Shown here: in pieces, positions 37,620 to 54,175 of the stretch | Layout: every line of letters begins with the position of its first letter | Numbering within the stretch: the stretch's first letter is position 1 | Source of the DNA: Alteriqipengyuania sp. | Lineage (GTDB): Bacteria; Pseudomonadota; Alphaproteobacteria; Sphingomonadales; Sphingomonadaceae | DNA length: 64,000 nucleotides | Reading direction: 5' to 3' | Assembly: GCA_964222325.1 (NCBI GenBank) | Contig: CAXQBC010000013.1 | Span: 59,072-123,071, forward strand | The notes under the pieces: generated by a model | The model's input: only the letters and a program-made list of their open reading frames with translations | Database searches by the model: none | What the model was told of the DNA's origin: nothing | Program-made: the position numbers and the translations under genes

Positions 37620-38291
37620 TCAAAGCCAGGAGATACCAAGATGATTGGCACCGTGCGCAAGCTCGCCGCCCAGAAATCCCTGCACCAGCACTAGAGCGGC
37701 CATGGCAAAGATTGCGGCGCGAAGCGCGGTCCGGCTCGCGGAAGCACGGCTCGCCAGATAGGCCATCGCCAGACCGAGGACCGCGATCAGCATCCCGTTC
37801 CATCGATGGACCTGCATGACGGCATCGCCGCCGAACCAAAGGCCGGTGTGGATCCATCCGAACAGGACTGCGACGACTGCGCCGATTGCTCCGCCGTGGA
37901 CGAGTACGCGCACCGCGCTCTCAAGCCCTGCATCTTTCCGGCGCATGACGAACAACTCGGTGGCAGCAGCCATGAGAAACAGGGCGATCGGGAAGTGGAT
38001 GGTCGCCGGATGCAGTTTTTTCAGGGCGGCGATGACGCCGGAATCGCCCTCATCAGCATGGCCACCAGCCTCGTCATGGCCTCCACTTGCTTCGTCGTGC
38101 GCGGCTGAGGGCTCGCCGACCGCTCCGCCGTCGCCCATCTGCGCCATGGCCGCCTGGTCATGCGCATCGCCATTCGCGGCGGCAGGCGCGGCGCTCGTCT
38201 CTTCGCCATGCTTTTCGTCGCCATGAGCCTGAACTGGTCCGACGAAGAGCAAGCTGGCAGCTACAATAGCCATGAATTGCATTCGTTTCAT
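37620..38291 (-). CDS. DUF2231-domain membrane protein with His/Asp/Glu-rich periplasmic N-terminus
   Basis: 223 aa. Signal peptide, then HGDEKHGEE...AHDEASGGHDEAGGHADEGD, then HPATIHFPIALFL (DUF2231). Confidence 0.75.
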   Translation of the reverse strand: MKRMQFMAIVAASLLFVGPVQAHGDEKHGEETSAAPAAANGDAHDQAAMAQMGDGGAVGEPSAAHDEASGGHDEAGGHADEGDSGVIAALKKLHPATIHFPIALFLMAAATELFVMRRKDAGLESAVRVLVHGGAIGAVVAVLFGWIHTGLWFGGDAVMQVHRWNGMLIAVLGLAMAYLASRASASRTALRAAIFAMAALVLVQGFLGGELAHGANHLGISWL

Positions 38292-38505
38292 TCTCTACGG
38301 GTTCCGGTCTTGGCGATGGTCGTGCGACCTATTGTGTCTGTAATGCTCTGCGAACCCTCATCTCTTGCCGTGATGGAGCGCGGTGATCCTCGGCGCGTGA
38401 GGGTCCAAATTTAACTCATGAGGGGGTTGGGTCTCTTGCCAATATCAGAGCCTTGTTAAGAGGGCGGCCAGCTTTAAGCACGAGCAAGAGCCCGGCTACC
38501 ATCTC

Positions 38506-38919
38506 CTAACCGTCTTGCGCCATGTTCTGGTGAGCCGCCATCTGCTTCATCATATCGTGCATCATCATCATGCGCTGGTGACAGGCCGCCATCATATCGG
38601 CGTTGTCCCCCTGCATCATGCCCGCCATGTGTTCCTGCATCGCTGTGCGGTGCTCGGCCATCAGCCTTTGGCGTTCGGCAGGATCGCTCGCCGCGTGGGC
38701 CTGCTGCATCAGCGCGCGCATTTCAGCCATCTTCTCGCGATGGGCAGCCATAGCGTCGGAATCCTGCATCGTGTGGCCAGCGTGATCCTGCTGCTGTGCC
38801 ACAGCCTGAGCTCCGTGCTCATGCTGTTCCTGGGCCGTCGCCGGAGTGGCTGTCAGGCCAGTGGCGAGAATGAGAGCTAGAGCTGTCCGTTTCACAATCG
38901 ATTTCCTTTCGTCGGTCAT
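38506..38919 (-). CDS. Met/His-rich periplasmic protein (probable Cu-binding)
   Basis: 137 aa. HEHG, DHAGHTMQDSDAMAAH, MQEHMAGMMQGDNADMMAACHQRMMMMHDMMKQM. An alternative GTG start at 38895 has a better SD. The 38976 start is rejected because it would include the promoter motif. Confidence 0.7.
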   Translation of the reverse strand: MTDERKSIVKRTALALILATGLTATPATAQEQHEHGAQAVAQQQDHAGHTMQDSDAMAAHREKMAEMRALMQQAHAASDPAERQRLMAEHRTAMQEHMAGMMQGDNADMMAACHQRMMMMHDMMKQMAAHQNMAQDG

Positions 38920-38947: not shown

Positions 38948-38976
38948 TTTACGCAGCCAACATCTGTTCCCCTCAA
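38948..38976 (-). promoter_or_regulatory. ECF-type promoter motif TTGAGGG-N16-CGTAAA
   Basis: Minus strand reads TTGAGGG gaacagatgttggctg CGTAAA. The -10 element ends 28 nt before ATG 38919. Confidence 0.55.
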
Positions 38977-39073
38977 ACAATTTCCGCGCCCACCGGAGAC
39001 GGCTGAGCCGATGGCACAGCCGGTTGCAGGAATGGTGTTTTTCGGTCACCCTTTTTGACCGAAGCCGGTCGAG

Positions 39074-39409
39074 ATGAATGGGACAGATCATGGTGACAAC
39101 AGAGCCGTCGGAGAAGCAGTCGTGAGCACGGTCAATGAGGACGGCAGCTGGGACATTCCGGAGCCCGATCATGCCGAGCTGGTGCAAATGCGCATTCGCC
39201 TCATAACTCTCGAGAACATAGTTCTCGGCCTTTTGTCCGGGGCCAGCGATGAACAGATCGACCAGATCAGAAAGCGTGCGGACATGATCGAACCACGCCC
39301 CGAGGCGAGCCGGCATCCGCTTACCGAACTGGCAGCAGGTGACATGCGTAAGTTTCTCGAACGCGCTGCTCGCATGGCCGAGGCGGAGGGCCGCGAAAAC
39401 CATGACTGA
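39074..39409 (+). CDS. Hypothetical protein
   Basis: 111-aa ORF with no recognised family. Coding status is uncertain. Confidence 0.4.
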   Translation: MNGTDHGDNRAVGEAVVSTVNEDGSWDIPEPDHAELVQMRIRLITLENIVLGLLSGASDEQIDQIRKRADMIEPRPEASRHPLTELAAGDMRKFLERAARMAEAEGRENHD

Positions 39410-39502
39410 TCCAGGCTTTGGGGCAGCAAAGGCGCTATGCAGGACGTGGAAATCCGGCCCGCCGCTATTTCCTTGCGCACATCATTCCGGCGTATCCGCA
39501 GC

Positions 39503-39943
39503 ATGACTAGAACTCATTGGCTCATCTTTGTTTGCGGGAGCCTGATCGCGTTCGTCTGGGAGATTTTCCAGATGCCGTTTTTCAAGCCGGGAAATCTCGA
39601 GCCTTATGAGCAGACCATTCGCTGCGGCATTGCAAGCCTAGGCGATGGCGTGATCCTGCTAACAGCTTATAGCCTTGCTGCATTGCGCGGCGGGCGCGCG
39701 TGGCTCTGGCAAGCCGCCAAAATGCCCTATGCGATCTATTTCGGCTTCGGGCTTGTCGTCGCCATCGCCGTCGAAATGATCGCCACATCGCTTCCGGCAG
39801 AAAGCTTCGTGAGCTGGCGCTACAGCGAGTTGATGCCGCACGAGCCAGTGACGGGGTTGGCGCTGATCCCGATCGCGATGTGGACGATCGTGCCTGCGCT
39901 CACGATCCTTCTGGTCCGCTTTGCCCGAGCCGAACCTGATTAA
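39503..39943 (+). CDS. Hypothetical 4-TM membrane protein
   Basis: 146 aa from MTRTHWLIFVCGSLIAF. The ORF is open from 39437. Confidence 0.5.
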   Translation: MTRTHWLIFVCGSLIAFVWEIFQMPFFKPGNLEPYEQTIRCGIASLGDGVILLTAYSLAALRGGRAWLWQAAKMPYAIYFGFGLVVAIAVEMIATSLPAESFVSWRYSELMPHEPVTGLALIPIAMWTIVPALTILLVRFARAEPD

Positions 39944-39956
39944 ACTGGGAGCGGCT

Positions 39957-40691
39957 TCAGGGTGCGTTCGGCACATGTTTCGCCCGCCGCCTGATTCTGG
40001 GAAACCGGTTCGCAAGCAGGACAAAGCCCGAAACCGCGATAATCGTCCCGCCGATCCCGAACAATAGCAGCCACCAGCTGTTGATGCGGTCGCGCTGCGT
40101 CCAGTCCATGATATGCAGCCCCCAGACAAAATCGAACAGGCGCCAGGTGTCGCTGCGGGCAGCGAGCACCGAGCCACTCGATGCATCGATGTAGACGCGG
40201 GTATTGTCCTCATCGCCGTAGGTGATCTGCCACGCCGGAAACGGACCCCGGAATTCGGTCCCGACAGCATCTTCGATGAGGCGCGTGGTCGCTATGGTGG
40301 TTGGTGGCCCGGTCCAGGCATAGCGAGCGATGGCCTGTGCGCTTGCAGCGGGAAGAGGCGAAAGGAGAATGCCGCTGTCCGGGTCGCGGAGCGTGACGCT
40401 TCCATCGTCCCGGCGGACCTCGGTTACGGCCCTGCCGCCGACCGCGCGCGTCGCAAGGGAAACCACCCCCTCGCTGCTATCGAGCCAATGGGGCATGACA
40501 GCATCAGCGGGCAGGACCTCCGGCGCGCGCGAAACGACATGTTCGGACCGAACCTCTTCGATGTCGAGAAACGACATCAGCGCCCCGGTGATCATCCACA
40601 GGAGCACTTGGACGCCGACAAAGATCGCCAGCCATTTGTGAAGCTTGCTGCCCAGCACATGAAGACGCAGCTTGAAAGAGCGTGTCGCCAA
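39957..40691 (-). CDS. PepSY-domain membrane protein
   Basis: 244 aa. KLHKWLAIFVGVQVLLWMITGALMSF is the PepSY-associated TM pattern, with a second TM at the C-terminus. Confidence 0.7.
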   Translation of the reverse strand: MATRSFKLRLHVLGSKLHKWLAIFVGVQVLLWMITGALMSFLDIEEVRSEHVVSRAPEVLPADAVMPHWLDSSEGVVSLATRAVGGRAVTEVRRDDGSVTLRDPDSGILLSPLPAASAQAIARYAWTGPPTTIATTRLIEDAVGTEFRGPFPAWQITYGDEDNTRVYIDASSGSVLAARSDTWRLFDFVWGLHIMDWTQRDRINSWWLLLFGIGGTIIAVSGFVLLANRFPRIRRRAKHVPNAP

Positions 40692-40711
40692 TCGGTGTTC
40701 CCCCGATCAGA

Positions 40712-41272
40712 TCAGTTGTTACGCGGTGCGCGTGACGATGAATGGTACTGAACGATCTTCCAGCCATCTGCATCATGGGCGAGGACCGAGGTCGCAACCC
40801 CTTCGCGGTCGATTACGCGACCGTCGGCCAGTTCGATCCGATAGGTGTACGTTTCGCGGCCATACGCCATATGTCCCATCCGGGTGACTGCGAGCGTCGG
40901 TTCGCCGAAGGTGAAGCTGGTTATTGCATCGAGTTCCGGTCCCAGGTGATGCTCCATGTAATGCGTGAAGCTGCCTTCCGCCTTGCCGTTTTCGTAAATG
41001 AAGGATTCCTGGGCAAACAGCGCAGCCATGGCCTCTGCATCGCGCGACGTCAGGGCATCGCGATATGATGTCAGAATTGCTTCTGCCCCAGCAACGTCAT
41101 CGTTCATCGCAGCCATATGCTCGGCATGGTTCATGCCCTGCTCCGTATGATCCATCGGCGTTGATACCGAATGTTCCGAATGCGCCGAATGGTCCATGGA
41201 TTGTGCCAGGGCGGGAGTGCCCCCTGCAGCCAAGGCCAGGGCGACCGCGCTTAGAGATAGTCTCGTTCTCAT
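40712..41272 (-). CDS. NTF2-like (DUF4440/SnoaL-like) periplasmic protein with His/Met-rich N-terminal extension
   Basis: 186 aa. Signal peptide, then MDHSAHSEHSVSTPMDHTEQGMNHAEHMAAM, then an NTF2-like core (ILTSYRDALTSRDAEAMAALF...GWKIVQYH). Confidence 0.7.
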   Translation of the reverse strand: MRTRLSLSAVALALAAGGTPALAQSMDHSAHSEHSVSTPMDHTEQGMNHAEHMAAMNDDVAGAEAILTSYRDALTSRDAEAMAALFAQESFIYENGKAEGSFTHYMEHHLGPELDAITSFTFGEPTLAVTRMGHMAYGRETYTYRIELADGRVIDREGVATSVLAHDADGWKIVQYHSSSRAPRNN

Positions 41273-41288
41273 TGTATATTTCCTTCAC

Positions 41289-42491
41289 TTAAAACCAGAA
41301 TCGCAAGCCCACGACGTAATTCATCACGCTGGGGTCTTCCCCTGCGGCGCGGGCAAAATCGGCGCCCTCACCGATCCGCCACTCCTGGGAGACGCCGACA
41401 TAGGGCGCGAATTCGCGTGCGAACTCGTAGCGAAGACGCAGACCTGCCTCGATCCGGTCGAGGCCAGCGCCAATGCCGAGTTCGGGAATATCCTGAGCCG
41501 AAAGAGCGATTTCGGCTCGCGGCTGGAGGATCAGCCGCTGCGTGATGCGCTGATCAAGCTCGCCCTCAAAGCGCGCCGTTACATCGCCCTTGCTCGATAC
41601 GAACGCCGCGACGTCGATCTCGAACTGGTAAGGGGCAATGCCCTGGACACCGATGACCGCATGGGTGCGCTCGGGCCCCGTCAGATCCTGACGGACACCG
41701 GCTTGGAAATCGAAGAAGGGTGCGATGGCGCGGCTCCAGAGCGCCTGGACCTCGGCGCCCTCGACGGGCTCACCGAAGCTGCCTTCACCCTCGGATTTGA
41801 ACCAGAACTTGTCGATATCACCGCCATAATATCCCTGGATATCCCAAAGATATCCATCAGCTCCTTCGCGTGCGCGATACTCAAGGCGGTCGCCCTGAAA
41901 CCAGAAGCGCATCCCGCCGTCGGTCTCACGGACAAGTTCGCGCCGCGCTTCGTTCATGGCTTCCTCGCCCCAGATCGCAACCGCCGCGCGCGCGGGACCG
42001 CTCCCAGCTTCGGGAGGAGGCGGCAGCAGCGGGATATCGTCGTTCGAGCCCATCTGCATCGCCGAATGGTCCATGCCCTGCATGTCCTGCGATCCCATCT
42101 GCCCATGGTTCATCTGGCTGTGATCCATCTGCCCATGGTCCATCGACGAGCTGCTGGCTTCCGCCTGCCCCATGTCGCCGCGGTTCATTTGCGAATGATC
42201 CATCGCGCCTTCGTCAGGCCTGCCCTGCGGCATCGAACCATGATCCATCGTCGAATGGTCCATCGCAACTTCAGGCTGGGCAGCGGGGCCGCAAGCCCCC
42301 TCTGCTACCGGATGCCCCATCGCGCGATGGCGCTCGGCTGCCGCCTCGCACTTTGTTTTGGCGTCAGCCTGCGCCTCGGCGCTCTGCTGCGGTTCCACTG
42401 GCGAGTGACCCGCATGCTGCGCCGCGGCGGGGGAGGCGAGAACCGAACCCGCGGCGGCCGAGGCAAGCAGGCTGATGATAGATATCTTCAT
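41289..42491 (-). CDS. copB: Copper resistance protein B (outer membrane)
   Basis: 400 aa. Met/His repeats (MDHSTMDHGSM, MDHSQMNRGDMG, MDHGQMDHSQMNHGQMG). The beta-barrel ends in VVGLRFWF. ATGA overlap with the copA stop. Confidence 0.9.
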   Translation of the reverse strand: MKISIISLLASAAAGSVLASPAAAQHAGHSPVEPQQSAEAQADAKTKCEAAAERHRAMGHPVAEGACGPAAQPEVAMDHSTMDHGSMPQGRPDEGAMDHSQMNRGDMGQAEASSSSMDHGQMDHSQMNHGQMGSQDMQGMDHSAMQMGSNDDIPLLPPPPEAGSGPARAAVAIWGEEAMNEARRELVRETDGGMRFWFQGDRLEYRAREGADGYLWDIQGYYGGDIDKFWFKSEGEGSFGEPVEGAEVQALWSRAIAPFFDFQAGVRQDLTGPERTHAVIGVQGIAPYQFEIDVAAFVSSKGDVTARFEGELDQRITQRLILQPRAEIALSAQDIPELGIGAGLDRIEAGLRLRYEFAREFAPYVGVSQEWRIGEGADFARAAGEDPSVMNYVVGLRFWF

Positions 42492-44335
42492 GCGCCCTCT
42501 CCGGCAGGATTGGCAACCGTGACGATCTGAAACATCCCGGCATGCATGTGATAGAGAAGGTGGCAGTGGAAGGCCCAGTCGCCCGGCTCGTCCGCCGTCA
42601 GGTCGAACTGCGCGCTGCCACCCGGTTGCAGGATAACCGTGTGCTTCAGTGGTTGACGGTTTGGAGGTGCACCGTTGACCAGCTCGAAGAAGTGTCCGTG
42701 CAGATGGATCGGGTGTGCCATCATCGTGTCATTGATCAGCTTTACCCGCACGCGTTCATTATAGGCAAAGCGGATCGGCTCCTCGGAGACGGCGGAGAAT
42801 TTCTTGCCGTCGAACGACCACATGTAGCGTTCCATGTTCCCGGTAAGATGGATTTCCATCCGGCGCGAAGGGCTTCGCGAGTCCTTGTTTGGTGTCAGCG
42901 CGCGCAGCTTGCGATAGTCGAGGGTACGGTGCGGGACATCGGCAAGGCCAATCCCGGGATCGCCCATCCGGTCGACCGGGTTCATCGACACCATGTCGAT
43001 GCCCGGTCCGACCTTCACATCGGGAGGCAATAGCGAGGTATCGCGCATCTGCATGCCTCCCGCCATGCCAGCCATTCCGGTCATCTCCGCCGAACCGCCA
43101 TCCATACCGGACATCCCGTCCGCGCCAGCCGCTCCGCTCGATCCGTGATCCATTCCGGCCATCCCGCCAGCGCCATGGTCCATGCCGGCCATACCAGCAT
43201 CGCCGCCGGAGCCATGGTCCATACCGCTCATGCCCATATCGGCCATAGTGAGCAGCGGGGGATCGCGCAGCGGCGGGATGGCCGCACGCGCGCCGGGCGT
43301 GCTCGCCAGCGTTGCGATGCCCATACCTGACCGATCCATCGACTCCGCCATCAGCGTGTAAGCCTGCTGCTCACCCGGCGTCACCACGACGTCGTAGGTT
43401 TCCGCGACGCCGATCTGGAACTCGTCCACTTCGACCGGCTCGACGTTCTGCCCGTCGGCTTGAACCACGGTCATCGGCAGGCCGGGAATGCGAATATTGA
43501 AAAATGTCATGGCGCCGGCATTGATGAACCGAAGCCGCACACGCTCGCCCGGACGGAAAAGATATTCCAGATTGTCGAGCGGTCCATGACCGTTCAGCAG
43601 ATATGTATAAGTTGCGCTCGACACATCGAGGATGTCGGTTGGCATCATGCGCATTCTGGCCCACATCCGGCGATCCTCGCCCGAGAGCGGATAGTCGTCG
43701 GTCCAGGTATTCTGGTTGTAGTTGAAGTAGCCTTCGCCCTTCTTGAGCTTGTCGAATATCGTGTGGGGCGACATTTCGCTGAACTCGCTCAGCACCACGA
43801 TATATTCGCGGTCGGCCTGCACCGGATCGGGACCTGCGGGATCGACCACGATCGGACCATAATGACCGGCCTGTTCCTGCAGCCCGCTATGCGAATGCCA
43901 CCAATAGGTGCCTGCCTGCCGCACGGGAAATTCCGCTGTGAAGGTCTCGCCCGGCTTCACGCCGGGAAAACTTACGCCCGGCACGCCATCGAGCTGGAAC
44001 GGCACGAGCAGGCCATGCCAGTGGATCGAGGTGTCTTCCTCAAGCTGGTTATGGACGTTGAGGCGGACGGTGGTCCCTTCGCGCAGGCGAAGGAGTGGCC
44101 CAGGGATGCTGCCATTGACGGCAATCGCGCCGCCACGCCTGTTGCCGGTGGAGAAAGCCGAGCGCGCAACCGTCAGATCGATATTCGGTCCGGTCGCCTC
44201 ATCGATACCTCGCCGGGCGGCCCCGGAGAGCAGATCTCCGCCTCGCGCCCAAGCGGGAACGGCACCGCCCAGGCCAAGCAGGCCCAGCCCGCTGGCACTT
44301 GTTCCAAGAAATTTTCGGCGATTGACGGCAGGCAT
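42488..44335 (-). CDS. copA: Copper resistance multicopper oxidase CopA/PcoA (Tat-secreted)
   Basis: 615 aa from MPAVNRRKFLGTS (twin-arginine), with AGGAG 8 nt upstream. HWHG, WWHSH and HCHLLYHMHAGM copper sites plus a Met-rich insert. The ORF is open to 44356, but that start leaves no leader after the promoter motif. Confidence 0.9.
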   Translation of the reverse strand: MPAVNRRKFLGTSASGLGLLGLGGAVPAWARGGDLLSGAARRGIDEATGPNIDLTVARSAFSTGNRRGGAIAVNGSIPGPLLRLREGTTVRLNVHNQLEEDTSIHWHGLLVPFQLDGVPGVSFPGVKPGETFTAEFPVRQAGTYWWHSHSGLQEQAGHYGPIVVDPAGPDPVQADREYIVVLSEFSEMSPHTIFDKLKKGEGYFNYNQNTWTDDYPLSGEDRRMWARMRMMPTDILDVSSATYTYLLNGHGPLDNLEYLFRPGERVRLRFINAGAMTFFNIRIPGLPMTVVQADGQNVEPVEVDEFQIGVAETYDVVVTPGEQQAYTLMAESMDRSGMGIATLASTPGARAAIPPLRDPPLLTMADMGMSGMDHGSGGDAGMAGMDHGAGGMAGMDHGSSGAAGADGMSGMDGGSAEMTGMAGMAGGMQMRDTSLLPPDVKVGPGIDMVSMNPVDRMGDPGIGLADVPHRTLDYRKLRALTPNKDSRSPSRRMEIHLTGNMERYMWSFDGKKFSAVSEEPIRFAYNERVRVKLINDTMMAHPIHLHGHFFELVNGAPPNRQPLKHTVILQPGGSAQFDLTADEPGDWAFHCHLLYHMHAGMFQIVTVANPAGEGA

Positions 44336-44365
44336 AGGGGGCTCCTGAGAAGGCATATACCGTCA

Positions 44366-44394
44366 CTTACGCGGCCACCTGCGCTACCCCTCAA
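44366..44394 (-). promoter_or_regulatory. ECF-type promoter motif TTGAGGG-N16-CGTAAG in front of copA
   Basis: Minus strand reads TTGAGGG gtagcgcaggtggccg CGTAAG. The -35 box is formed by the last codons (ttT GAG GGg tag) of the sigma gene. Confidence 0.55.
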
Positions 44395-44950
44395 AGTTTT
44401 CGAACCGCTCCTTCAGCCGGTTGCGCGCACGATAGATGCGCGTCTCGACAGCTTTCTCCGTGGTGCCGAGCAGCTCGGCAGCCTCGGCCTGGCTGTATCC
44501 CTCGACAGTGACCAGCACGAGCGCCTCTTGCAGCCGCACCGGCAAGCGCCCGATTTCGGCCTGGACCAGCCGCAGCTGTTCGCGGGCTCCGGCAACATTT
44601 TCGGGATTGGGGGCATCGTCGGCAACGGCGTCGGCTTCCCGCCCGTCCGGCAAACTAAGGAAGCCCGCAACTTTCCTCCGGCGGAGCCTGTCGCGGCACC
44701 GGTTGAGAACGATTGTCGTCAAATAAGGACCGATGGGCTTGCTCGGATCGAGGCGATGCCGTGTCAGCCAGACCGAAGCGAGACTGTCCTGGACGACATC
44801 TTGGGCCCGCGAGGGTGAACCCAGCATACGCGTGGCGAGCGCAATCAACCTAGCGATCTCATGCTCGACCAGAGCTGTGAACGCCCGCTTGTCACCGGCT
44901 ATCGCCCGCCCGATCAGAGCTTCGTTCGAAGTGTCATCCACCACTGCCAA
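44384..44950 (-). CDS. ECF (group IV) RNA polymerase sigma factor, CnrH-like position
   Basis: 188 aa. Region 2 is DVVQDSLASVWL. Region 4 is LPVRLQEALVLVTVEGYSQAEAAELLGTTEKAVETRIYRARNRL. Confidence 0.9.
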   Translation of the reverse strand: MAVVDDTSNEALIGRAIAGDKRAFTALVEHEIARLIALATRMLGSPSRAQDVVQDSLASVWLTRHRLDPSKPIGPYLTTIVLNRCRDRLRRRKVAGFLSLPDGREADAVADDAPNPENVAGAREQLRLVQAEIGRLPVRLQEALVLVTVEGYSQAEAAELLGTTEKAVETRIYRARNRLKERFENFEG

Positions 44951-44956
44951 GGCTGA

Positions 44957-45391
44957 TCAGTCACGCGGATCGCGCGTGAGGGCCGCGGACACTTTCCGGT
45001 CGAACTGAAGCTGCTGATCGGGATCGAGAATTTCCCGCATGTCGAAGACGTGGCGCACGGTCGCTTTTTGCAAATCGCCCATGCGCGCATGCACCTCGTC
45101 GATCGCGGCACTGACTTCGGGCCCGTATTCGTGCTCGGTTTCCATTGCCTGGGCGAGCTGGGCGTTGGCTGCGCGCGCAGAGGCTTCGAGCCTTGCCTGT
45201 TCTACCGCGAAACGCGCTTCGAGCGCGTCGAGCCGCTGCTCCTGATCAGCCGTGAGCGAGAGTTCATCGTGCACGAACTGGTGCAGGCTACCCTCGGCAT
45301 CGTTGTTGGACCAGCGATCGGCGGCAAGCGCTCCGAGGCATCCGGCGAGCGCCGCCAGCAGGACCGCGAGGACAAGGTGAAACTTCTTCAA
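44957..45391 (-). CDS. Periplasmic heavy-metal sensor, CnrX-like (Metal_resist family)
   Basis: 144 aa with an N-terminal anchor. Has H37-x3-H41, E58 and H114-x3-M118 in LHQFVHDE ... LEARF ... RHVFDMR. Confidence 0.8.
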   Translation of the reverse strand: MKKFHLVLAVLLAALAGCLGALAADRWSNNDAEGSLHQFVHDELSLTADQEQRLDALEARFAVEQARLEASARAANAQLAQAMETEHEYGPEVSAAIDEVHARMGDLQKATVRHVFDMREILDPDQQLQFDRKVSAALTRDPRD

Positions 45392-45394
45392 CGC

Positions 45395-45685
45395 CTATGA
45401 CCCCACATGAAGCAAAGCAGCGGGCGACAGGGATTCTCCGCCAACGAGGCTCTCGCCAACAATTTCTGTAGGAGCGCCATATTCGGACGGCCATCCGCTG
45501 GTCCCTGCGCCTGCCGCCAGGCCGACGACAAACAGACCGGCGAACAAGGCCATTCTGCGTCGCTGATCGGCAATTTCGCCAAGCTGTCCTGCGCGCTGCC
45601 AGACGCCGTTCATGAAGTCGGGCGGCACGTCGCCAGCCTCCTGCGACGCGCCGAGCATCGCATCGAGTGTCTGATTATCACGCAT
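45395..45685 (-). CDS. Small single-pass anti-sigma factor, CnrY-like position
   Basis: 96 aa. Cytoplasmic N-terminus, one TM (MALFAGLFVVGLAAGAG), short periplasmic tail. AGGAG SD. First gene of the operon. Confidence 0.6.
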   Translation of the reverse strand: MRDNQTLDAMLGASQEAGDVPPDFMNGVWQRAGQLGEIADQRRRMALFAGLFVVGLAAGAGTSGWPSEYGAPTEIVGESLVGGESLSPAALLHVGS

Positions 45686-45713
45686 CCCTTGCTCCTGTCG
45701 GTTGCACGGTTCC

Positions 45714-45742
45714 TATACGCGACACTTCGCGCAAACCCTCAA
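45714..45742 (-). promoter_or_regulatory. ECF-type promoter motif TTGAGGG-N16-CGTATA (autoregulatory position)
   Basis: Minus strand reads TTGAGGG tttgcgcgaagtgtcg CGTATA. The -10 element ends 28 nt before the anti-sigma ATG. Confidence 0.6.
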
Positions 45743-45748
45743 GATAAT

Positions 45749-45777
45749 TTGAGGGCAAGAAGCAATTGATGCGTAAA
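45749..45777 (+). promoter_or_regulatory. ECF-type promoter motif TTGAGGG-N16-CGTAAA (divergent partner)
   Basis: TTGAGGG caagaagcaattgatg CGTAAA, 104 nt upstream of the DUF411 gene. Confidence 0.55.
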
Positions 45778-45881
45778 GGCATTGAGTCAAAAGCACGCGT
45801 CGTTTGTCGGCGCAGAATTTGCGCGGACACATTCTGGCAAAGTCATTCTGCTCGGCGCGGCCTCAGGAAAGGCAAATGTAA

Positions 45882-46349
45882 ATGAGTTTCATCAATCCAT
45901 CAAAACCGTTCAGTCGTTCGCTGGCGGCTTCGCTCCTCCTCGCCCTTGCAGCCTGCTCGAATGCGGCCCAGGCCGCGACATACACGATGTACCGCGACGC
46001 AGGGTGCGGGTGCTGTCTTAACTGGGCCGGTCACGTAGAACACGGGCTCGAAGCGGAGGTCGCCTCGGTCGACTCCGACGACATGGCTGCACTAAAGACA
46101 GCCAGGGGTGTACCGCAGGATCTGTGGTCGTGCCACACGATGGAAGTCGATGGCTATATCATCGAAGGCCACGTGCCGGCCGATGCCGTCGCGAAGCTAT
46201 TACGCGAACGCCCCGAAGGAGTGGCAGGCCTGGCCGTGCCCGGAATGCCGCTTGGCTCGCCCGGGATGGAACTCGGGGACCAGGTGCAGCCCTATGATGT
46301 CATCGCCTTCGGCCCAGGCGGGCGGAGCGTGTTCGCATCCTACCCGTGA
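45882..46349 (+). CDS. DUF411 (CopG-type) metal-binding lipoprotein
   Basis: 155 aa. Lipobox LALAAC. YRDAGCGCCLNW, CHTMEVDGYIIEGHVP, PGMPLGSPGME. Confidence 0.85.
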   Translation: MSFINPSKPFSRSLAASLLLALAACSNAAQAATYTMYRDAGCGCCLNWAGHVEHGLEAEVASVDSDDMAALKTARGVPQDLWSCHTMEVDGYIIEGHVPADAVAKLLRERPEGVAGLAVPGMPLGSPGMELGDQVQPYDVIAFGPGGRSVFASYP

Positions 46350-46392
46350 ATATGGGCAGCCCTTTTTGCGCCAACTCTGACGGAGGACCATC

Positions 46393-46668
46393 ATGTCGGA
46401 CTATTCGGTCAAAACCTCAATTTTCATATGGGGCTGGACACTCAGCCTCTTCCTGCTTTTCAGCTACCTGATCTGCATCGGTTTCGGCCTGCTCGCGCCC
46501 GAACAGGCGCACATGCACGAAGCGTGGGCGCCGCTGCTTCCCGGTTTCGAGTGGCTGACCCTCTCGGGCTTTCTGGCAGGCGCTCTTGGAAGTTTTTTGT
46601 ATGGTTGGTATATTGCTTTAATCGCGGTGCCGCTTTTCCGATATTTTCAGAAGCGTTTCAGTCGATAG
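46393..46668 (+). CDS. Small 3-TM membrane protein (DUF5676-like)
   Basis: 91 aa, 43 nt after the DUF411 gene. The family name is recalled and not verified. Confidence 0.6.
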   Translation: MSDYSVKTSIFIWGWTLSLFLLFSYLICIGFGLLAPEQAHMHEAWAPLLPGFEWLTLSGFLAGALGSFLYGWYIALIAVPLFRYFQKRFSR

Positions 46669-46830
46669 ACAGAGCTTGTCGCGGTAACTTGGTCCAAGAG
46701 GGGCAAGGCCTCGTCTGGCTCATTTCGATCGCATATTATTACTGGAGCTAGAGCCATTCCCAGAACTCCGTCCCAAGGAGAGAGGCGATCCCTGTTAGTT
46801 CACGTCGCCATCGGCGCTGTTCTGGGTGTA

Positions 46831-47568
46831 GTGATTCTTCACCCGCTCACGACGCTCGTCTTTTGGTACGAGTTTGGTGCCTTGGCCTTTGCCGACCAAG
46901 ACAGCGCACTCAGCTTCATAATCGACCGGACTCTCTCCGCGTTTGCGTTCGAAATGTTTGCAATGAGCTTGATATATGCCGCGATCGGCGGCGCGATCGG
47001 ACTGGGTTTTGGAGTGTATCATGTTCGGCTCGTGCACGAGCGGTCCAGAGTTCGCTTTCTGGAACGCGAACTCAATGAAGAACTTCCATTACTAATAGCT
47101 CGCGGCGAAAGCGAGCAGCTGGAATTCAAATCTTCCTTCCGTTGGGACAGGCGTCAGGAGAAAGTCAACCGCAGCTTGCAGCAAGTCATCGTCAAAACCC
47201 TGGCGGGGTTCCTCAACCAAGAGGGCGGCACTCTCCTTATCGGTGTCGAAGATGATGGCAGCATCGCGGGCATCGAGGCGGACATGCAAACGCTTAAGCC
47301 CGCCAACCAGGATGGCTTCGAACGTTTATTGATGGACACAGCAAAAGAGGGTCTTGGAGGACACGCGTGTGCTCTGATCCATTGTAGGTTCCACAAACTC
47401 GAGGAAAAGATCGTTTGCCGAGTTATTGTGGAGAAGAGCTTGGAGCCGATCTATTTTTCCGAAGGGAGCGTGGCCCGGTTCATGCTGCGAGCAGGCAATA
47501 GCACGCGTGAGCTCGATGTGCGCGAAGCTCAGGCTTATCTCCAGCATCGCGGGAAAGTGAGCATCTAA
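46831..47568 (+). CDS. AlbA_2 (Schlafen-type) domain protein with hydrophobic N-terminal segment
   Basis: 245 aa, GTG start. LIARGESEQLEFKSSF...LAGFLNQEGGTLLIGVEDDGSI is the AlbA_2 core. Locally lower GC. A shorter start at GTG 47032 is possible. Confidence 0.6.
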   Translation: MILHPLTTLVFWYEFGALAFADQDSALSFIIDRTLSAFAFEMFAMSLIYAAIGGAIGLGFGVYHVRLVHERSRVRFLERELNEELPLLIARGESEQLEFKSSFRWDRRQEKVNRSLQQVIVKTLAGFLNQEGGTLLIGVEDDGSIAGIEADMQTLKPANQDGFERLLMDTAKEGLGGHACALIHCRFHKLEEKIVCRVIVEKSLEPIYFSEGSVARFMLRAGNSTRELDVREAQAYLQHRGKVSI

Positions 47569-47677
47569 CCGCTGGTCTGTGGGACAGCACGCGTGTTCGG
47601 AGCGCTTTGTCGATCGGCTCAGTTCCTGCAAATTTATGATGCGGTTGGGGCTTCGCCCCGCCACATACTCAAAAATA

Positions 47678-47706
47678 TTGAGGGATGAGCCCCGACCGAA
47701 CGTACT
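47678..47706 (+). promoter_or_regulatory. ECF-type promoter motif TTGAGGG-N16-CGTACT
   Basis: TTGAGGG atgagccccgaccgaa CGTACT, 48 nt upstream of the permease ORF start (TTG 47755). Confidence 0.45.
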
Positions 47707-47754: not shown

Positions 47755-49107
47755 TTGCAAGACCATGAGCACGAGAATCAAAGCGAAACAGCTGGCTCGA
47801 TAACCCTGCTGGGCGGCGTGGCGATGGGAACCGGCGTCATGATCGGTGCCGGCATATTCGCGCTGACCGGGCAGATCGCCGAGCTTGCCGGTCCGCTCTT
47901 CCCCTTATCCTTCATCGCTGGCGCGCTGGTAACCTCGCTGGCGGCGTACAGCTATATCAAGATGTCGAACAAATGGCCGTCTTCGGGCGGCATCGCGATG
48001 ATCTTGCAGAAAGCATACGGACCCGGCGTGATCGCCGCCTCTGCCTCGCTCCTAATGGCGCTGTCGATGGTGATTAACGAGAGCCTCGTGGCCCGCACCT
48101 TTGCCACTTACGCGCTGCGCCCGTTCGGCCTCGAAAGCAGCGGGTGGCTCGTTTCTCTCGCAGCGCTTGCCGTCATCATTTTCGCCTATCTCGTCAATGC
48201 AGCGGGCAACAGGTCGGTAAGCGGCTTCTCGCTTATCATGTCCGCCATCAAGATCGGCGGCATCGCGCTGTTCGCAGTCGCCGCGATCTTGGCCAGCGGT
48301 TTTTCATCAGGCGCATTTTCGCAGCCCGTCTCGCTGACCAATGCAGAAGCCCTGCTCGCCTCGGTTGCTTTCTCGATCCTCGCCTTCAAGGGCTTCACCA
48401 CGATTACCAATAGCGGCGGCGAAATCGTCGACCCGCACAAGAATGTCGGCCGGACGATCATGATCTCGATCGCGGTCTGTATCGTGATCTATCTGCTTGT
48501 CGCAGTGGCGGTGGGTTCGAGCCTGAGCATATCCGAGATCGTCGAGGCGCGCGATTATTCGCTCGCAGCAGCGGCGCGTCCGGCGCTGGGAGAACTGGGC
48601 TTCTATTTCACCGTCGCGATCGCGATCGCCGCAACGACTTCGGGCGTGATCGCGAGCGTATTTGCCGTGTCGCGCATGCTTGCGATGCTGACCGACATGA
48701 AGATGATCCCGCACAGCCATTTCGGCATGAGCGGCGGGATACGCAGCCACATGCTGGTCTATACGGTGGTCATTGCCGGGACGCTTGCCGTCCTGTTCGA
48801 TCTGTCGCGGATCGCCTCGCTGGGCGCCTTCTTCTACCTCGTCATGGATATGCTGGTGCACTGGGGCGTCCTGCGTCACCTGCGCAAGGAAGTCGGCGCG
48901 CGAGCATCAATACTTCTTACAGCACTCGCGGCAGATGGCGTGGTCCTCGCAGCCTTTACCGCGGCCAAATTGCGCAGCGATCCTGCCGTTGTCGCCTATG
49001 CGGCGATCGGCATCGTCGCGGTGTTCGTGGGGGAATGGATCTACCTCTCGCGCAATTCCGAAGCGCCCGCTTCTCACAAAGATGATCGGTCAGGAGAGAA
49101 GAGTTGA
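47755..49107 (+). CDS. APC-family amino acid/polyamine permease
   Basis: 450 aa, about 12 TM. GGVAMGTGVMIGAGIFALTG. TTG start. The N-terminus QDHEHENQ is His/acid-rich. Confidence 0.85.
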   Translation: MQDHEHENQSETAGSITLLGGVAMGTGVMIGAGIFALTGQIAELAGPLFPLSFIAGALVTSLAAYSYIKMSNKWPSSGGIAMILQKAYGPGVIAASASLLMALSMVINESLVARTFATYALRPFGLESSGWLVSLAALAVIIFAYLVNAAGNRSVSGFSLIMSAIKIGGIALFAVAAILASGFSSGAFSQPVSLTNAEALLASVAFSILAFKGFTTITNSGGEIVDPHKNVGRTIMISIAVCIVIYLLVAVAVGSSLSISEIVEARDYSLAAAARPALGELGFYFTVAIAIAATTSGVIASVFAVSRMLAMLTDMKMIPHSHFGMSGGIRSHMLVYTVVIAGTLAVLFDLSRIASLGAFFYLVMDMLVHWGVLRHLRKEVGARASILLTALAADGVVLAAFTAAKLRSDPAVVAYAAIGIVAVFVGEWIYLSRNSEAPASHKDDRSGEKS

Positions 49108-49178
49108 TGGCACCTTCTTCAACCAGCTTTGCCGCTTTTACGCCGGGCTTTTTCGAAACTGTTTCCCGAAAACCTGAG

Positions 49179-49198
49179 TTGACGAAGCGAAACGTCAA
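49179..49198 (+). promoter_or_regulatory. Inverted repeat TTGACG-N8-CGTCAA upstream of the grx-mauE operon
   Basis: Perfect 6-bp arms, 10-22 nt before the candidate start codons. Function unknown. Confidence 0.25.
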
Positions 49199-49207
49199 GA
49201 AAAACAG

Positions 49208-49969
49208 ATGGAGCGATTCATGACGACCCGAACAGCGGCGGTCTACCGCATGGTGATGGAGGACCATGTCTGTCCCTATGGCATCAAGACGGTCGATCTT
49301 GTCAAGCGGCAAGGCTTCGAGGTCGACGATCATCACCTGACCAGCAGGGAGGAAACCGATGCGTTCAAGGACAAGTACGACGTCGAGACCACCCCGCAGA
49401 CCTTTATCGAAGGCAAGCGCATTGGCGGCTATGACGATGTCCGCGAATTCTTCGGCAAGAGCCGCTCGCAGCCTGAGGAAGGCGAAACCAGCTATCAGCC
49501 GGTCATTGCGATTTTCGCGGTCGCGCTGCTGCTCGCGCTAGGGCTGAGCTGGGCGTTTTTTGACGACCTCTTCACTGTCCGGGCCGCAGAATGGTTCGTG
49601 AGCCTGTCGATGACCCTGCTCGCCGTTCAGAAGCTTCAGGACGTGCGCAGTTTCTCGACGATGTTCCTCAACTACGACCTGCTCGCACGGCGCTGGGTGC
49701 CCTATGGCTTCGTCTACCCGTTCGGCGAAGCCGCTGCCGGCATTCTCATGACCGCGGGCGCGCTGACCTGGCTCTCGGCCCCGCTGGCATTGTTCATCGG
49801 CACAGTCGGCGCTGTCAGCGTCTTCAAGGCTGTCTACATCGACAAGCGCGAGCTTAAATGCGCCTGCGTGGGCGGCAGCAGCAATGTGCCGCTCGGCTTT
49901 GTCTCGCTGACCGAAAATCTGTTCATGATCGGAATGGGTCTGTGGATGGGCGCGAAGCTTCTCGCATGA
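49208..49969 (+). CDS. Glutaredoxin-domain / MauE-DoxX-type membrane protein fusion
   Basis: 253 aa. The N-terminal Grx-like domain has a CPYG motif (VCPYGIKTVDL...TPQTFIEGKRIGGYDD), followed by 4-5 TM of MauE type. ATG 49220 is an alternative start. Confidence 0.75.
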   Translation: MERFMTTRTAAVYRMVMEDHVCPYGIKTVDLVKRQGFEVDDHHLTSREETDAFKDKYDVETTPQTFIEGKRIGGYDDVREFFGKSRSQPEEGETSYQPVIAIFAVALLLALGLSWAFFDDLFTVRAAEWFVSLSMTLLAVQKLQDVRSFSTMFLNYDLLARRWVPYGFVYPFGEAAAGILMTAGALTWLSAPLALFIGTVGAVSVFKAVYIDKRELKCACVGGSSNVPLGFVSLTENLFMIGMGLWMGAKLLA

Positions 49970-50379
49970 TCACCGCGCTCCTTCTCTCCGTCTTTCTGTT
50001 CCTCTCGGCTGTCGCTTCGCACCTTGCCATTCTGGGTGTCGGTCACCGGCTTCTCGACCGGCGCCGCGATACGCAGGCAAAGCTTGCCGTTTCGCTGATC
50101 GTGCTCGCGTCGCATTTCCTCGTGGCGATCCTTTTTGCCGCAGGTTTCTGGCTGGGCGCGCAATGGGGCCTGGGAGGTTTCGACAAGGCGCCTTCCATGG
50201 ACTGGATGGACTACTTCTATTTCTCGCTCATCAATGTGACCACACTGGGCCTGGGCGACATTTATCCGACCGAGCACCTGAGAGTCCTGGCCGGCGTCGA
50301 GGCCCTCACCGGCTTCGCTCTCATCAGCTGCTCGGCGCAGCTATTCTGGACCATGATGCACAAAGGAGAAGAAGCATGA
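49966..50379 (+). CDS. Minimal K+-channel-like pore protein
   Basis: 137 aa. ATGA overlap with the upstream gene. The pore-helix/filter-like sequence is FYFSLINVTTLGLGDIYP. Confidence 0.65.
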   Translation: MITALLLSVFLFLSAVASHLAILGVGHRLLDRRRDTQAKLAVSLIVLASHFLVAILFAAGFWLGAQWGLGGFDKAPSMDWMDYFYFSLINVTTLGLGDIYPTEHLRVLAGVEALTGFALISCSAQLFWTMMHKGEEA

Positions 50380-50903
50380 CTGAAAAGACGACCCACTCGG
50401 ACAAGGGAGGGGGCGGCAGCTACTGGCGATTCATGGCCATGGTGTCGACCTCGACCGTGATCATGTTCTTCCTGATGTATGCCAACACCTTTACCGTCGA
50501 TGATCTTTTCTGGAGCGAAACGCGCTTCTGGATGATGTTTGTCATGGGCGCGATGATGATGGTTGTCATGCTGCTCTTCATGTGGGGCATGTACAAGGAC
50601 CGGACCAAGAACTTCATTATTCTGGGCGTCGGCGCCTTCGTGTTCGCCCTCGCGCTGTGGCTGGTGCGCAGCCAGACCACCGTCGACGATACCGAATATA
50701 TGGCAGCGATGATCCCGCACCACTCGATCGCGATCATGACCAGCGAACGCGCGAGCCTGAAGGATCCTCGCGTGCGCGAACTCGCTCAGGCCATCATCGT
50801 CGCCCAGCGCCGCGAAATCGCCGAGATGAAATATCTCATCGACGATATCGAGCAGAACGGTCCTCGGACCGAAGAACGCCTGCCCGAGGAGATGCAGCCA
50901 TGA
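50376..50903 (+). CDS. DUF305 domain membrane protein
   Basis: 175 aa. ATGA overlap. MIPHHSIAIMTSE...AQAIIVAQRREIAEM is the DUF305 core. The N-terminal TM region is Met-rich. Confidence 0.8.
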   Translation: MTEKTTHSDKGGGGSYWRFMAMVSTSTVIMFFLMYANTFTVDDLFWSETRFWMMFVMGAMMMVVMLLFMWGMYKDRTKNFIILGVGAFVFALALWLVRSQTTVDDTEYMAAMIPHHSIAIMTSERASLKDPRVRELAQAIIVAQRREIAEMKYLIDDIEQNGPRTEERLPEEMQP

Positions 50904-51388
50904 ACAAGATAGCTTTCACGGCGCTCATCGCGCTACCGCTTGCCGCCTGCAATTCGAACACCGCTCCGGGCAACGACCGCGAAGCCCAGCTCGACCCGCC
51001 TGCCACTGCCGCGCCGATCGAGGATGCGGCCAGTGCACTGGCAAATGTTGACTCAGGCCTGATGCTTCCCGGGACCATGAATGACGCGGATCTTGCTGCT
51101 CTGGGCGCAGGACAGGCCTGCCAGTTCCGCCTGACCGAAGTGGCCTTTCCCTCATTTGTCTATGACGGCGACGGGGGCGGAGCAATCAAGATCAATGGCA
51201 AATTGATCCCCGTCACTGCCGATGGCCCCGGCAGCTATTCGAACGGTGAGCTTCGGATCAGAACCCGCATGCTGGATGATGAAGGCGATGCGAGCCTGCA
51301 GATGCAGGAGATGATCGTGGCAGCGCCAAGAGCCAAGGATGAGTTTGGCTTTTGGGGCTATACCACCTGTCCAGCCGAGGGAGCCTGA
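50900..51388 (+). CDS. Lipoprotein, unknown function
   Basis: 162 aa. ATGA overlap. Lipobox LPLAAC. Confidence 0.6.
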   Translation: MNKIAFTALIALPLAACNSNTAPGNDREAQLDPPATAAPIEDAASALANVDSGLMLPGTMNDADLAALGAGQACQFRLTEVAFPSFVYDGDGGGAIKINGKLIPVTADGPGSYSNGELRIRTRMLDDEGDASLQMQEMIVAAPRAKDEFGFWGYTTCPAEGA

Positions 51389-52230: not shown

Positions 52231-52257
52231 ACTTTGAGCAACAGACAAGGAAGTCGC

Positions 52258-53610
52258 ATGTTTCTGGAGAAAATCAAAACCCCCGGTCTCTCACACCTTT
52301 CCTACATCATCGGCTCGGGCGGAAAGGCAGCGGTCATCGATCCGCGCCGGGACTGCGAGGTCTATGTCGAAAAGGCCCGGGCCGAAGGGCTGGAGATAAC
52401 GCATATCTTCGAAACCCATCGCAATGAGGATCTGCTCAGCGGCTCGCCGATCTTGGCCAATTTGACAGGAGCCACGGTCTATCACGGGCCCAACGCGGCA
52501 GGCGAAGTCATCTTTGCCAGGACCGCGCGCGAAGGCGATTGTTTCGAGCTGGGTCAATTGAAGATCGAAGTGCTTGAAACACCTGGACACACCGACGATC
52601 ATCTCGCTTTCGTCATCCATGACAGCGAATATTCCGAGGGGCCGGTCGGCGTCTTTACCGGCGATGCCCTGTTCGTCGGCGATGTCGGGCGCACCGATTT
52701 CTATCCCGAGCGCAAGGAAGAAGTCGCGGGCCTTCTATTCGACTCCCTGCAGAAACTTTGCGGCCTCGGCGATCAGGCGATTATCTACCCGGCGCATGGT
52801 GCGGGCTCGGTCTGCGGGTCGGGAATGGCGGACCGGGAATTCTCGACAATCGGCCACGAGCGGCGCAACAACCCGCGCCTGCGCATCTCCGACCGCGACG
52901 AGTTCATCGAGGCGAAGGTAGCAGAGCACCACTACCAGCCGCCCTATTTCCGGCTGATGGAGCGGCTCAACCTTGCAGGGTCCGATGCCGCGCCGCGCGT
53001 CATGCGGCCAAGGCGTCTGGGGCTGGAAGACCTTAGCGAGAGCGGCGCCGATCACCTGGTCGATGTGCGCGAGCCGCTCGCCTACGCTGCCGGCCATCTG
53101 CCGGGTGCCATGTGCCTTCCGGTTGGAATGATACCGGCCTTTGCCGGATGGTTCCTCGGTGAAGGCGACAGGATCGCCCTCATTGCTTCCGAGGAAGGCC
53201 AGCTAGCCCAGGCCATGGCCCATCTGGTGCGCATCGGTCTCGATAATGTTGTGGGCGGCTATGTCGGCGTGGTTCCAGCCGCCGCACAGGGCAAAGCGAT
53301 GCGCAGCATTCCCATGATTGGCACCGAGGAAGTCGCGCGCAGGCTCGATCAAGACAGCGGCGAGTGGACCTTGCTCGACGTGCGCGACGCGGACGAACGG
53401 CAAGAAGCAAGCATCGACGGCTCAGGACATATCTATGTCGGTGAGCTCAACACGCGGTGGGAAGAGCTCGACCGCGACCGCCACTACACGCTGATGTGCG
53501 CGAGCGGCATGCGGGCGAGCGTTGCGGCGGGTTGGCTGGCCAGCAAGGGTTTCGAGCACCTCGATATCTATCTGGGCTCTATGGGGGCGTGGACAAACGC
53601 CTCCGGCTGA
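52258..53610 (+). CDS. MBL-fold protein fused to two rhodanese domains (CstB-like persulfide dioxygenase/sulfurtransferase architecture)
   Basis: 450 aa from MFLEKIKTPG. The MBL motif reads ETHRNEDLLSG (HxNxD instead of HxHxD). The C-terminal rhodanese repeats contain CASGMRAS. Confidence 0.85.
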   Translation: MFLEKIKTPGLSHLSYIIGSGGKAAVIDPRRDCEVYVEKARAEGLEITHIFETHRNEDLLSGSPILANLTGATVYHGPNAAGEVIFARTAREGDCFELGQLKIEVLETPGHTDDHLAFVIHDSEYSEGPVGVFTGDALFVGDVGRTDFYPERKEEVAGLLFDSLQKLCGLGDQAIIYPAHGAGSVCGSGMADREFSTIGHERRNNPRLRISDRDEFIEAKVAEHHYQPPYFRLMERLNLAGSDAAPRVMRPRRLGLEDLSESGADHLVDVREPLAYAAGHLPGAMCLPVGMIPAFAGWFLGEGDRIALIASEEGQLAQAMAHLVRIGLDNVVGGYVGVVPAAAQGKAMRSIPMIGTEEVARRLDQDSGEWTLLDVRDADERQEASIDGSGHIYVGELNTRWEELDRDRHYTLMCASGMRASVAAGWLASKGFEHLDIYLGSMGAWTNASG

Positions 53611-53635
53611 AGCGCCAAAATCTTGAAAAGCAAGC

Positions 53636-53657
53636 CAAAATCTTTTGCGAGATTTTG
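53636..53657. terminator. AT-rich hairpin between convergent genes
   Basis: CAAAATCT-tttgcg-AGATTTTG. GCCAAAATCTT is also directly repeated 20 nt upstream. Confidence 0.35.
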
Positions 53658-53688
53658 CTCGTATGTGGTAGGTGAGCTTGCTCTTCGC

Positions 53689-54135
53689 TCAACGAGCAGC
53701 GCGACCGGGCGCTTTATCCATCGAGTGACTTCCTGGTCCTCGAACGAAGACGAATGCCAGCGCCCCCAGGATAGCGATATTTTTGAGCAAAGGACCTGTG
53801 TGACCTGGGGCGATATGGATCGCAAGAGTTATCGGAACGAGGGTAAGAAATAACGCGGTGCATGAGAGCCGGGTCATCCACCCCAAGGCCAGTGATGTTC
53901 CTGCACCGATGAAAACCAAGCCAGACAGCCACAAAAGAATGGACGCATCTCCAATTAGAGCAACGTGATCTTTCCATGGCGACAATGCCATCCGGCCCAG
54001 CATATATTCATGCGCAAGAAAATGCCCCAATCCGCCTATGATGAATATGAGGCTCAAACAGAGGCGGAAGACCGGATCGATCAATCGCACTTTTGCGGCC
54101 CATGTCGCTAGGCTGTTTTCCATATTCCGGATCAT
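53689..54135 (-). CDS. DoxX family membrane protein
   Basis: 148 aa, 4 TM. RLCLSLIFIIGGLGHF. Confidence 0.8.
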   Translation of the reverse strand: MIRNMENSLATWAAKVRLIDPVFRLCLSLIFIIGGLGHFLAHEYMLGRMALSPWKDHVALIGDASILLWLSGLVFIGAGTSLALGWMTRLSCTALFLTLVPITLAIHIAPGHTGPLLKNIAILGALAFVFVRGPGSHSMDKAPGRAAR

Positions 54136-54175
54136 AGAGTTCTTTCCCCCTCAGGTTGATACGTCGATGGCAGAC

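Follow-up and report, generated by a model that had tools for sequence, protein, structure and literature searches.

Five motif copies as predicted promoters of a CnrH-type ECF sigma factor over copper-type genes on a laterally spread island of Sphingomonadales

In Cupriavidus metallidurans CH34, the CnrYXH system of plasmid pMOL28 combines a membrane protein, a periplasmic sensor, and a sigma factor with a target operon, and together with NccYXH it represents the group of extracytoplasmic function (ECF) sigma factors called ECF291, formerly part of ECF20. The CnrYXH/ECF291 family is recognized by its sigma, its sensor, its promoters, and a resistance-nodulation-division (RND) efflux target (PMC7826278), and the ligand set of the sensor CnrX gives nickel and cobalt signaling (PMC6851896). 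The present study suggests that a relative of this switch controls a different set of genes in an alphaproteobacterium. Specifically, a 64-kb stretch of DNA from Alteriqipengyuania sp. (GenBank assembly GCA_964222325.1, contig CAXQBC010000013.1, positions 59,072 to 123,071; hereafter the window) holds five copies, (a) to (e), of the bipartite motif TTGAGGG-N16-CGTA, and these are very probably promoters that RNA polymerase recognizes with the locally encoded sigma factor of the CnrH type. An earlier note, made from the DNA letters without database searches, had proposed that the five copies are promoters of a local ECF sigma factor that also directs its own synthesis. That proposal is now supported by the homology of the sigma to CnrH and of its sensor to CnrX, by the Y-X-H gene order, by the match to the mapped CnrH promoters of pMOL28, by positional conservation in 80 related loci, and by the divergence of the spacers among them. 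The promoter type and the signaling architecture are already known from CnrYXH/ECF291; we found no paper that describes the copper-type regulon, the layout with five promoters, the divergent anti-sigma, or the wide lateral spread.

An exact pattern search of both strands returned five matches in the window, at the positions and on the strands that the earlier note had read by eye (Table 1), and the distances that it quoted from motif to start codon are correct. Its observations that the spacer is 16 nucleotides (nt) throughout and that the motif should be rare by chance were also borne out: dinucleotide-preserving shuffles of the window gave 0.01 matches on average, and none of 100 shuffles reached five. 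The motif extends beyond its 11 fixed bases. In the consensus A-A-A-W-W-t-T TTGAGGG g T ... G CGTA a, an A/T-rich stretch (AAAWWtT) precedes the -35 box, a T stands at +2 after this box, and a G precedes CGTA. With a weight matrix built from 88 distinct sites of related loci, the five copies score 26.7 to 36.7 bits, and the 99.99th percentile of the window lies at -2.6. The earlier note had allowed for further copies, and a search with one mismatch adds just one, GTGAGGG..CGTA at 60880-60906 on the minus strand. This candidate sixth site, which lies within the coding sequence of a CusF-like protein and is without the A/T-rich upstream stretch, was set aside as probably due to chance. Because the five sites are separated from it by a wide gap in score (26.7 bits or more versus 5.5), they form a discrete class and not the upper end of a continuum. 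A consensus scan for sigma-70 promoters (TTGACA-N16-18-TATAAT-like) found six sites where 4.6 were expected, none of which coincides with the five motifs in promoter geometry, and intrinsic terminators occur in the region at chance level only and are of no help in delimiting transcription units.

Table 1. Predicted promoters and associated genes in the 64-kb window
Feature	Coordinates	Strand	Basis and remarks
Promoter (a)	45716..45742	-	TTGAGGG-N16-CGTA(TA); 36.7 bits; predicted to be autoregulatory, before the anti-sigma/sensor/sigma operon; predicted start ~45707
Promoter (b)	44368..44394	-	35.1 bits; before copA; predicted start ~44359
Promoter (c)	38950..38976	-	36.0 bits; before the gene for a Met/His-rich periplasmic protein; predicted start ~38941
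Promoter (d)	45749..45775	+	29.9 bits; divergent from (a), before the DUF411 and two-transmembrane-segment (2-TM) genes; predicted start ~45784
Promoter (e)	47678..47704	+	26.7 bits; before the APC-permease operon; predicted start ~47713
96-amino acid (aa) single-pass membrane protein, CnrY position	45395..45685	-	Presumed anti-sigma; position, size, topology
CnrX/NccX-type periplasmic metal sensor	44957..45391	-	Pfam Metal_resist PF13801, E=4e-16
CnrH-type ECF sigma	44384..44950	-	Pfam Sigma70_r2 and r4_2
copA (multicopper oxidase), copB, SnoaL/DUF4440-like, and PepSY_TM genes	39957..44335	-	Pfam; behind (b)
Met/His-rich secreted protein	38506-38919 (alternative GTG start 38895)	-	Translation; behind (c)
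DUF2231 membrane protein	37620-38291	-	Pfam DUF2231; follows the Met/His-rich gene (unit 37620..38919)
DUF411 (CopG-like) protein	45882-46349	+	Pfam PF04214, E=2e-26; behind (d)
Small 2-TM protein	46393-46668	+	Weak DUF5676 match; unit 45882..46668, synteny in the related loci
APC-family permease, glutaredoxin-MauE fusion, ion-channel-like, DUF305, and DUF6692 proteins	47755..51388	+	Pfam; gene order conserved; behind (e)

Downstream of site (a), the minus strand encodes, in this order, a 96-aa protein without a family match, a 144-aa Metal_resist protein, and a 188-aa ECF sigma factor. The last is the only sigma-like gene that tblastn finds in the window, as the earlier note had stated. Its best match in the PDB is CnrH (4cxf, E=2e-26), followed by SigW (1e-12), and by tblastn it is 39% identical to CnrH over 180 aa. 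The sensor matches NccX (4clv, E=2e-20) and CnrX (E=1e-19). The five residues that bind nickel and cobalt in CnrX, His42, His46, Glu63, His119, and Met123, align to identical residues of the sensor (H-x3-H, Glu, His, and Met), and these are invariant in 42 distinct orthologues. The 96-aa protein comprises about 45 cytoplasmic residues, one transmembrane segment, and about 35 periplasmic residues with a C-terminal LSPxxLL; CnrY has 95 aa and a like topology. Thus, given a CnrH-like sigma, a CnrX/NccX-like sensor, and a third protein with the plan and length of CnrY, the operon behind site (a) is, to judge from its sequence, a CnrY-X-H-type module. The locus has the sigma, the sensor, and, on sequence evidence, the promoters of the CnrYXH/ECF291 family, but the RND-efflux target is missing, the gene after the sigma being copA.

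The 96-aa protein has a conserved P-x-x-L-L element about six residues from its C terminus, which recalls the SPFGLL of CnrY and NccY (LSPAALL versus ASPFGLL) and could be a contact with the CnrX-type sensor. It is the only detectable likeness between the presumed anti-sigmas of alphaproteobacteria (window 45395-45685; locus L081, 511-795; locus L084, 5280-5567) and CnrY/NccY.

The earlier note had argued for promoters from the combination of a CGT-containing -10 element with a 16-nt spacer. This argument is generic for ECF sigma factors, and the specific support comes instead from the match to the cnr promoters. On the pMOL28 sequence, cnrYp reads TCAAGGG-N17-CGTATA and cnrCp, which begins 11 nt after the cnrH stop, reads CCGAGGG-N17-CGTATA, both with the boxes oriented as in the window. 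Primer extension located the transcription start of cnrY 24 nt and that of cnrC 25 nt upstream of the gene (PMC9045368), and on the pMOL28 sequence each of these positions lies 7 nt past the final A of CGTATA. The starts listed in Table 1 were predicted by this rule, as 7 nt after the -10 hexamer, and the leaders would then measure 22 nt for the presumed anti-sigma gene and 24 nt for copA, close to those of cnr, with a range of 22-25 nt over both systems. Also shared are the gene order (membrane protein, sensor, sigma, target operon), the promoter grammar (GAGGG at -35 and CGTAT at -10), and the placement of one promoter before the first regulatory gene and another at or just after the sigma stop; the -35 box of site (b), which corresponds to cnrCp, overlaps the final codons and the stop of the sigma gene (TTT GAG GGG TAG). 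In contrast, the spacer is 16 nt in the window and 17 nt at cnr, the -35 box starts with TT and not with CC, and there are five promoters, one of them divergent, compared with two. Moreover, the targets are copA/copB and further units instead of the cnrCBA(T) RND pump, and the hosts are alphaproteobacteria (Erythrobacteraceae and other Sphingomonadales) that carry the system on a laterally spread island.

A profile search with the sigma yielded 80 genomic loci, with sigmas 55-96% identical, from Erythrobacteraceae and other Sphingomonadales and from a few bins labeled otherwise. These loci, 1.5 Mb in all, contain 235 exact copies of the motif, with at least one copy in 78 of the 80, and all of the exact copies can be sorted by position into five classes, defined by copA, the anti-sigma gene, the APC permease gene, the Met/His-rich gene, and the divergent unit. 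As a check against circularity, upstream regions were also picked by gene position alone and the best match in each was recorded. With at most one mismatch, the motif is present upstream of the anti-sigma gene in 73 of 77 loci, of copA in 75 of 76, and of the APC permease gene in 62 of 68, and it is exact in all 19 loci that have the Met/His-rich gene. Tabulated against gene starts in this way, as the earlier note had advised, the copies stand before the first genes of operons and never before internal ones: for copB and the SnoaL, PepSY_TM, sensor, sigma, MauE, DUF305, and 2-TM genes, a copy with up to one mismatch lies upstream in none of the 47-80 loci available for each. Autoregulatory copies that are not exact read TTaAGGG-N16-CGTATA at the same place, and exact copies are most numerous in the divergent class, the most conserved one (77, versus 25 in the autoregulatory class). 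The spacers have diverged, with 6-15 distinct sequences per class in the five main classes, and spacers and flanks show 45-78% pairwise identity. At promoter (d) of the window, spacer and flanks are unrelated to those of the closest relatives while the boxes are spared, and DNA homology to several close relatives (L001, L002, L004, and L006) resumes exactly at 47678, the first base of promoter (e).

This conservation bears on which protein reads the motif and on whether it is a promoter at all. A CGT-containing -10 element is common to many ECF groups (Table 4, PMC13492112), and the five copies might on that account be read by another ECF sigma encoded elsewhere, with the local sigma serving other targets. 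However, in 78 of the 80 loci, which come from many genera, the motif accompanies this sigma gene, it matches the promoters of the closest characterized homologue of this sigma, and one copy overlaps the sigma gene's own stop codon, all of which makes a distant reader highly improbable. It is even harder to credit that the motif serves a DNA-binding regulator as an operator instead of acting as a promoter. Such an operator could be seen in sites (a) and (d), which stand back to back in the inverted arrangement CCCTCAA-N6-TTGAGGG and might be taken for one palindrome, but the gap between their -35 boxes ranges over 6-9 nt from one lineage to another and therefore disfavors a single palindromic element. 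In addition, sites (b), (c), and (e) each stand alone and lack symmetry, the two halves are always 16 nt apart, every copy is directed toward a gene start at a distance of 28-104 nt, and no transcription-factor gene is conserved with the motif in the related loci.

The DNA next to promoters (d) and (e) differs among the islands. In most relatives, a gene for a 228-237-aa S-adenosylmethionine-methyltransferase-like protein lies directly behind the divergent promoter and before DUF411 (L001 and most other loci, ~8430-9160). The window is without this gene and has in its place, at 45744-45845, about 100 nt of unrelated sequence of lower GC content, together with a copy of promoter (d) whose spacing differs. 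At 46661-47678, after the DUF411 unit and before promoter (e), the window carries a gene with a Schlafen/AlbA_2 domain, which some related islands share and the closest ones lack.

Several points weigh against the assignment of the five motifs to a CnrYXH-like switch responding to copper. The presumed anti-sigma is not recognizable as CnrY by sequence or profile: BLASTP, phmmer against the PDB, Pfam, NCBIfam, and two hhalign runs, one of them with Sphingobium and Asticcacaulis intermediates, returned no similarity of the 96-aa protein to CnrY or NccY. Our literature search found no relevant paper on this module in sphingomonads. The sensor keeps the complete nickel/cobalt ligand set of CnrX, including the Met, so its sequence does not say copper. 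The (a)/(d) pair is symmetric and cannot alone fix the orientation of the motif, and the consensus printed for ECF291, the CnrH group, in a 2026 paper that took it from ECF Hub (-35 xATACGC, -10 xxCCCTCA; PMC13492112, Table 4) is the exact reverse complement of TGAGGG...GCGTAT and thus has the opposite orientation.

If the consensus were correct as printed in that table, ATACGC would be the -35 element and CCCTCA the -10 element. Sites (b) and (e) would then drive antisense transcription of the sigma gene and of the SLFN-like gene, respectively, the mapped starts of cnrYp and cnrCp lie downstream of CGTATA, and CGTA is a typical ECF -10 core; we regard the reversed orientation as extremely unlikely. 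With TTGAGGG retained as the upstream box, it is plausible that the inversion arose when single-strand motif discovery upstream of the operon caught the divergent promoter, which is the better conserved of the two. The same paper found no ECF291 promoter at cnr and reported that, in a strain without CnrH, starts assigned to ECF291 were regulated (PMC13492112), and both results fit an inverted consensus. With this consensus, 395 transcription start sites of C. metallidurans were assigned, or 3.06% of the total (Table 3, PMC13492112).

With the five motifs taken as promoters of the local sigma, a mechanism can be outlined in which we infer the sequestration and release of the sigma, the start positions, and the extents of the operons from the CnrYXH model (PMC6851896). 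TTGAGGG and the A/T-rich stretch upstream of it would constitute the -35 element and (G)CGTA(t/a)(a) the -10 element, and transcription would begin some 7 nt beyond the -10 hexamer. At rest, the 96-aa protein would hold the sigma at the membrane. Binding of a periplasmic metal ion to the CnrX-type sensor would cause the small membrane protein to free the sigma, which would raise expression of its own operon from (a), creating a positive feedback loop. The freed sigma would also raise four effector units: copA-copB-SnoaL-PepSY_TM from (b), the Met/His-rich and DUF2231 genes from (c), the DUF411 and 2-TM genes from (d), and the genes for the APC permease, the glutaredoxin-MauE fusion, the channel-like protein, DUF305, and DUF6692 from (e).

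Among these targets, CopA is assigned to NCBIfam TIGR01480 (copper_res_A) with 779 bits, and the start at ATG 44335 that the earlier note had adopted is plausible, with a Tat signal (RRKFL) and AGGAG ahead of it. For the Met/His-rich protein, the distance from site (c) to the ATG at 38919 holds, but the sequence also offers a GTG at 38895, whose ribosome-binding site is better, as an alternative start. In other lineages, the Met/His-rich and DUF2231 genes are fused into one gene, which lies behind the divergent promoter. The APC-permease unit is probably a target operon, its operon structure being read from gene spacing alone.

Judged from the content of the regulon alone, copper is a moderately probable inducing metal. 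The promoters and the sigma could be as described and the sensor could nevertheless answer to nickel and cobalt, as CnrX does with the same five ligands, or to several metals, in which case copper would not be the specific signal. This we consider unlikely, although it is the alternative to which we give most weight. Every recognizable effector is of copper type (CopA, CopB, the DUF411/CopG-like protein, and the Met/His-rich protein), the more distant modules face copCD or a "copper-binding protein," and the RND pump gene of the window (61198-63960) carries no motif. We lean, if only slightly, toward a copper-responsive system in which a sensor with the CnrX fold and complete nickel/cobalt ligands has been retuned to periplasmic copper. 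By a sigma/anti-sigma route distinct from CopRS/CusRS, CueR, and CorE, this sensor would switch on CopAB together with uncharacterized genes (those for the APC permease, the glutaredoxin-MauE fusion, DUF6692, DUF2231, PepSY_TM, and the SnoaL-like protein), the whole forming a cassette of ~17 kb that would be spreading among marine Sphingomonadales.

The more distant modules belong to relatives of the sigma that are about 40% identical, from a Sphingobium plasmid, Asticcacaulis, and Ralstonia, and they have (G/A)AGGG-N16/17-CGTAT before like genes. On plasmid pSPHCH01 of Sphingobium chlorophenolicum, the order is Y-X-H-copA-copB, with TTGAGGG-N16-CGTA at the sigma stop and gCGAGGG-N16-CGTA facing copCD. 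A CueR-ATPase pair adjoins this Y-X-H-copAB module, and so the two systems coexist there. On pASTEX02 of Asticcacaulis, TGAGGG-N16-CGTAC faces a unit of copper-binding-protein, DUF2231, and copAB genes, and an ncc-like module of Ralstonia has GCGAGGG-N17-CGTATT after its sigma.

CopRS/CusRS and CueR are the usual regulators of copAB/pco and of copper ATPases. The output of the two-component systems CopRS and CusRS and of CueR, a member of the MerR family, is like that proposed here, namely the induction of periplasmic copper detoxification genes. However, the logic of the window would be that of a sigma and its anti-sigma, not of a phosphorelay or an allosteric activator, and there is no palindromic operator. 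In Myxococcus xanthus, CorE and CorE2 (ECF44/ECF238), which respond to copper and to cadmium and zinc, are likewise ECF sigmas over a multicopper oxidase and copper-handling genes. CorE works without an anti-sigma and senses the metal itself, by means of a CxC motif together with a Cys-rich domain at its C terminus (PMC6851896). In contrast, the 188-aa sigma of the window contains a single Cys (NRCRDR), ends nine residues after region 4 without a Cys-rich tail, and is encoded alongside a membrane partner and a periplasmic sensor. An assignment to the CorE type was rejected on these grounds.

The island that carries the module (~36990-58450) shares ~90-94% DNA identity over ~17 kb with its counterparts in no fewer than seven named genera (Parasphingorhabdus, Qipengyuania, Erythrobacter, Altererythrobacter, Pseudopontixanthobacter, Aurantiacibacter, and Croceicoccus; comparison with loci L001-L014), and such identity across genera points to recent lateral transfer. 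Homology starts at ~36990, just past a gene for a 1895-aa autotransporter. To the right of the APC-permease unit lies a sulfur-handling cluster without the motif (52234-56845), encoding a metallo-beta-lactamase-rhodanese fusion, a second metallo-beta-lactamase protein, a BLH-type phosphatase-like protein, and a TauE/SafE exporter, a gene content reminiscent of operons that detoxify persulfide or sulfite. A second copper system follows on the minus strand (56892-63960), with a CusA-like RND protein, a CusF-like protein, a multicopper oxidase, and a P-type ATPase with YHS and HMBD domains. It has no strong copy of the motif and is presumably under a different regulator. The weak copy at 60880-60906 stands 50 nt before the second multicopper oxidase gene (59235-60830), which is followed by the P-type ATPase gene (56892-59222). 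In the chromosomal part to the left of the island, the minus strand encodes a full-length LigD with phosphoesterase, ligase, and primase-polymerase domains (24457-26973), which is unrelated to the motif.

Collectively, these analyses provide a clean five-promoter regulon for an uncharacterized branch of the CnrH family, and the role of such sigmas in alphaproteobacteria is thereby directly testable. They also tie about 10 genes of unknown function to metal stress, probably that caused by copper, including the APC-permease operon that is kept in most relatives. If the ECF291 consensus is indeed inverted, then the 395 assignments made with it in C. metallidurans would be affected and may need re-scoring. 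Furthermore, the module represents a natural experiment on metal selectivity, in which the same CnrX ligand set is coupled to a different apparent output.

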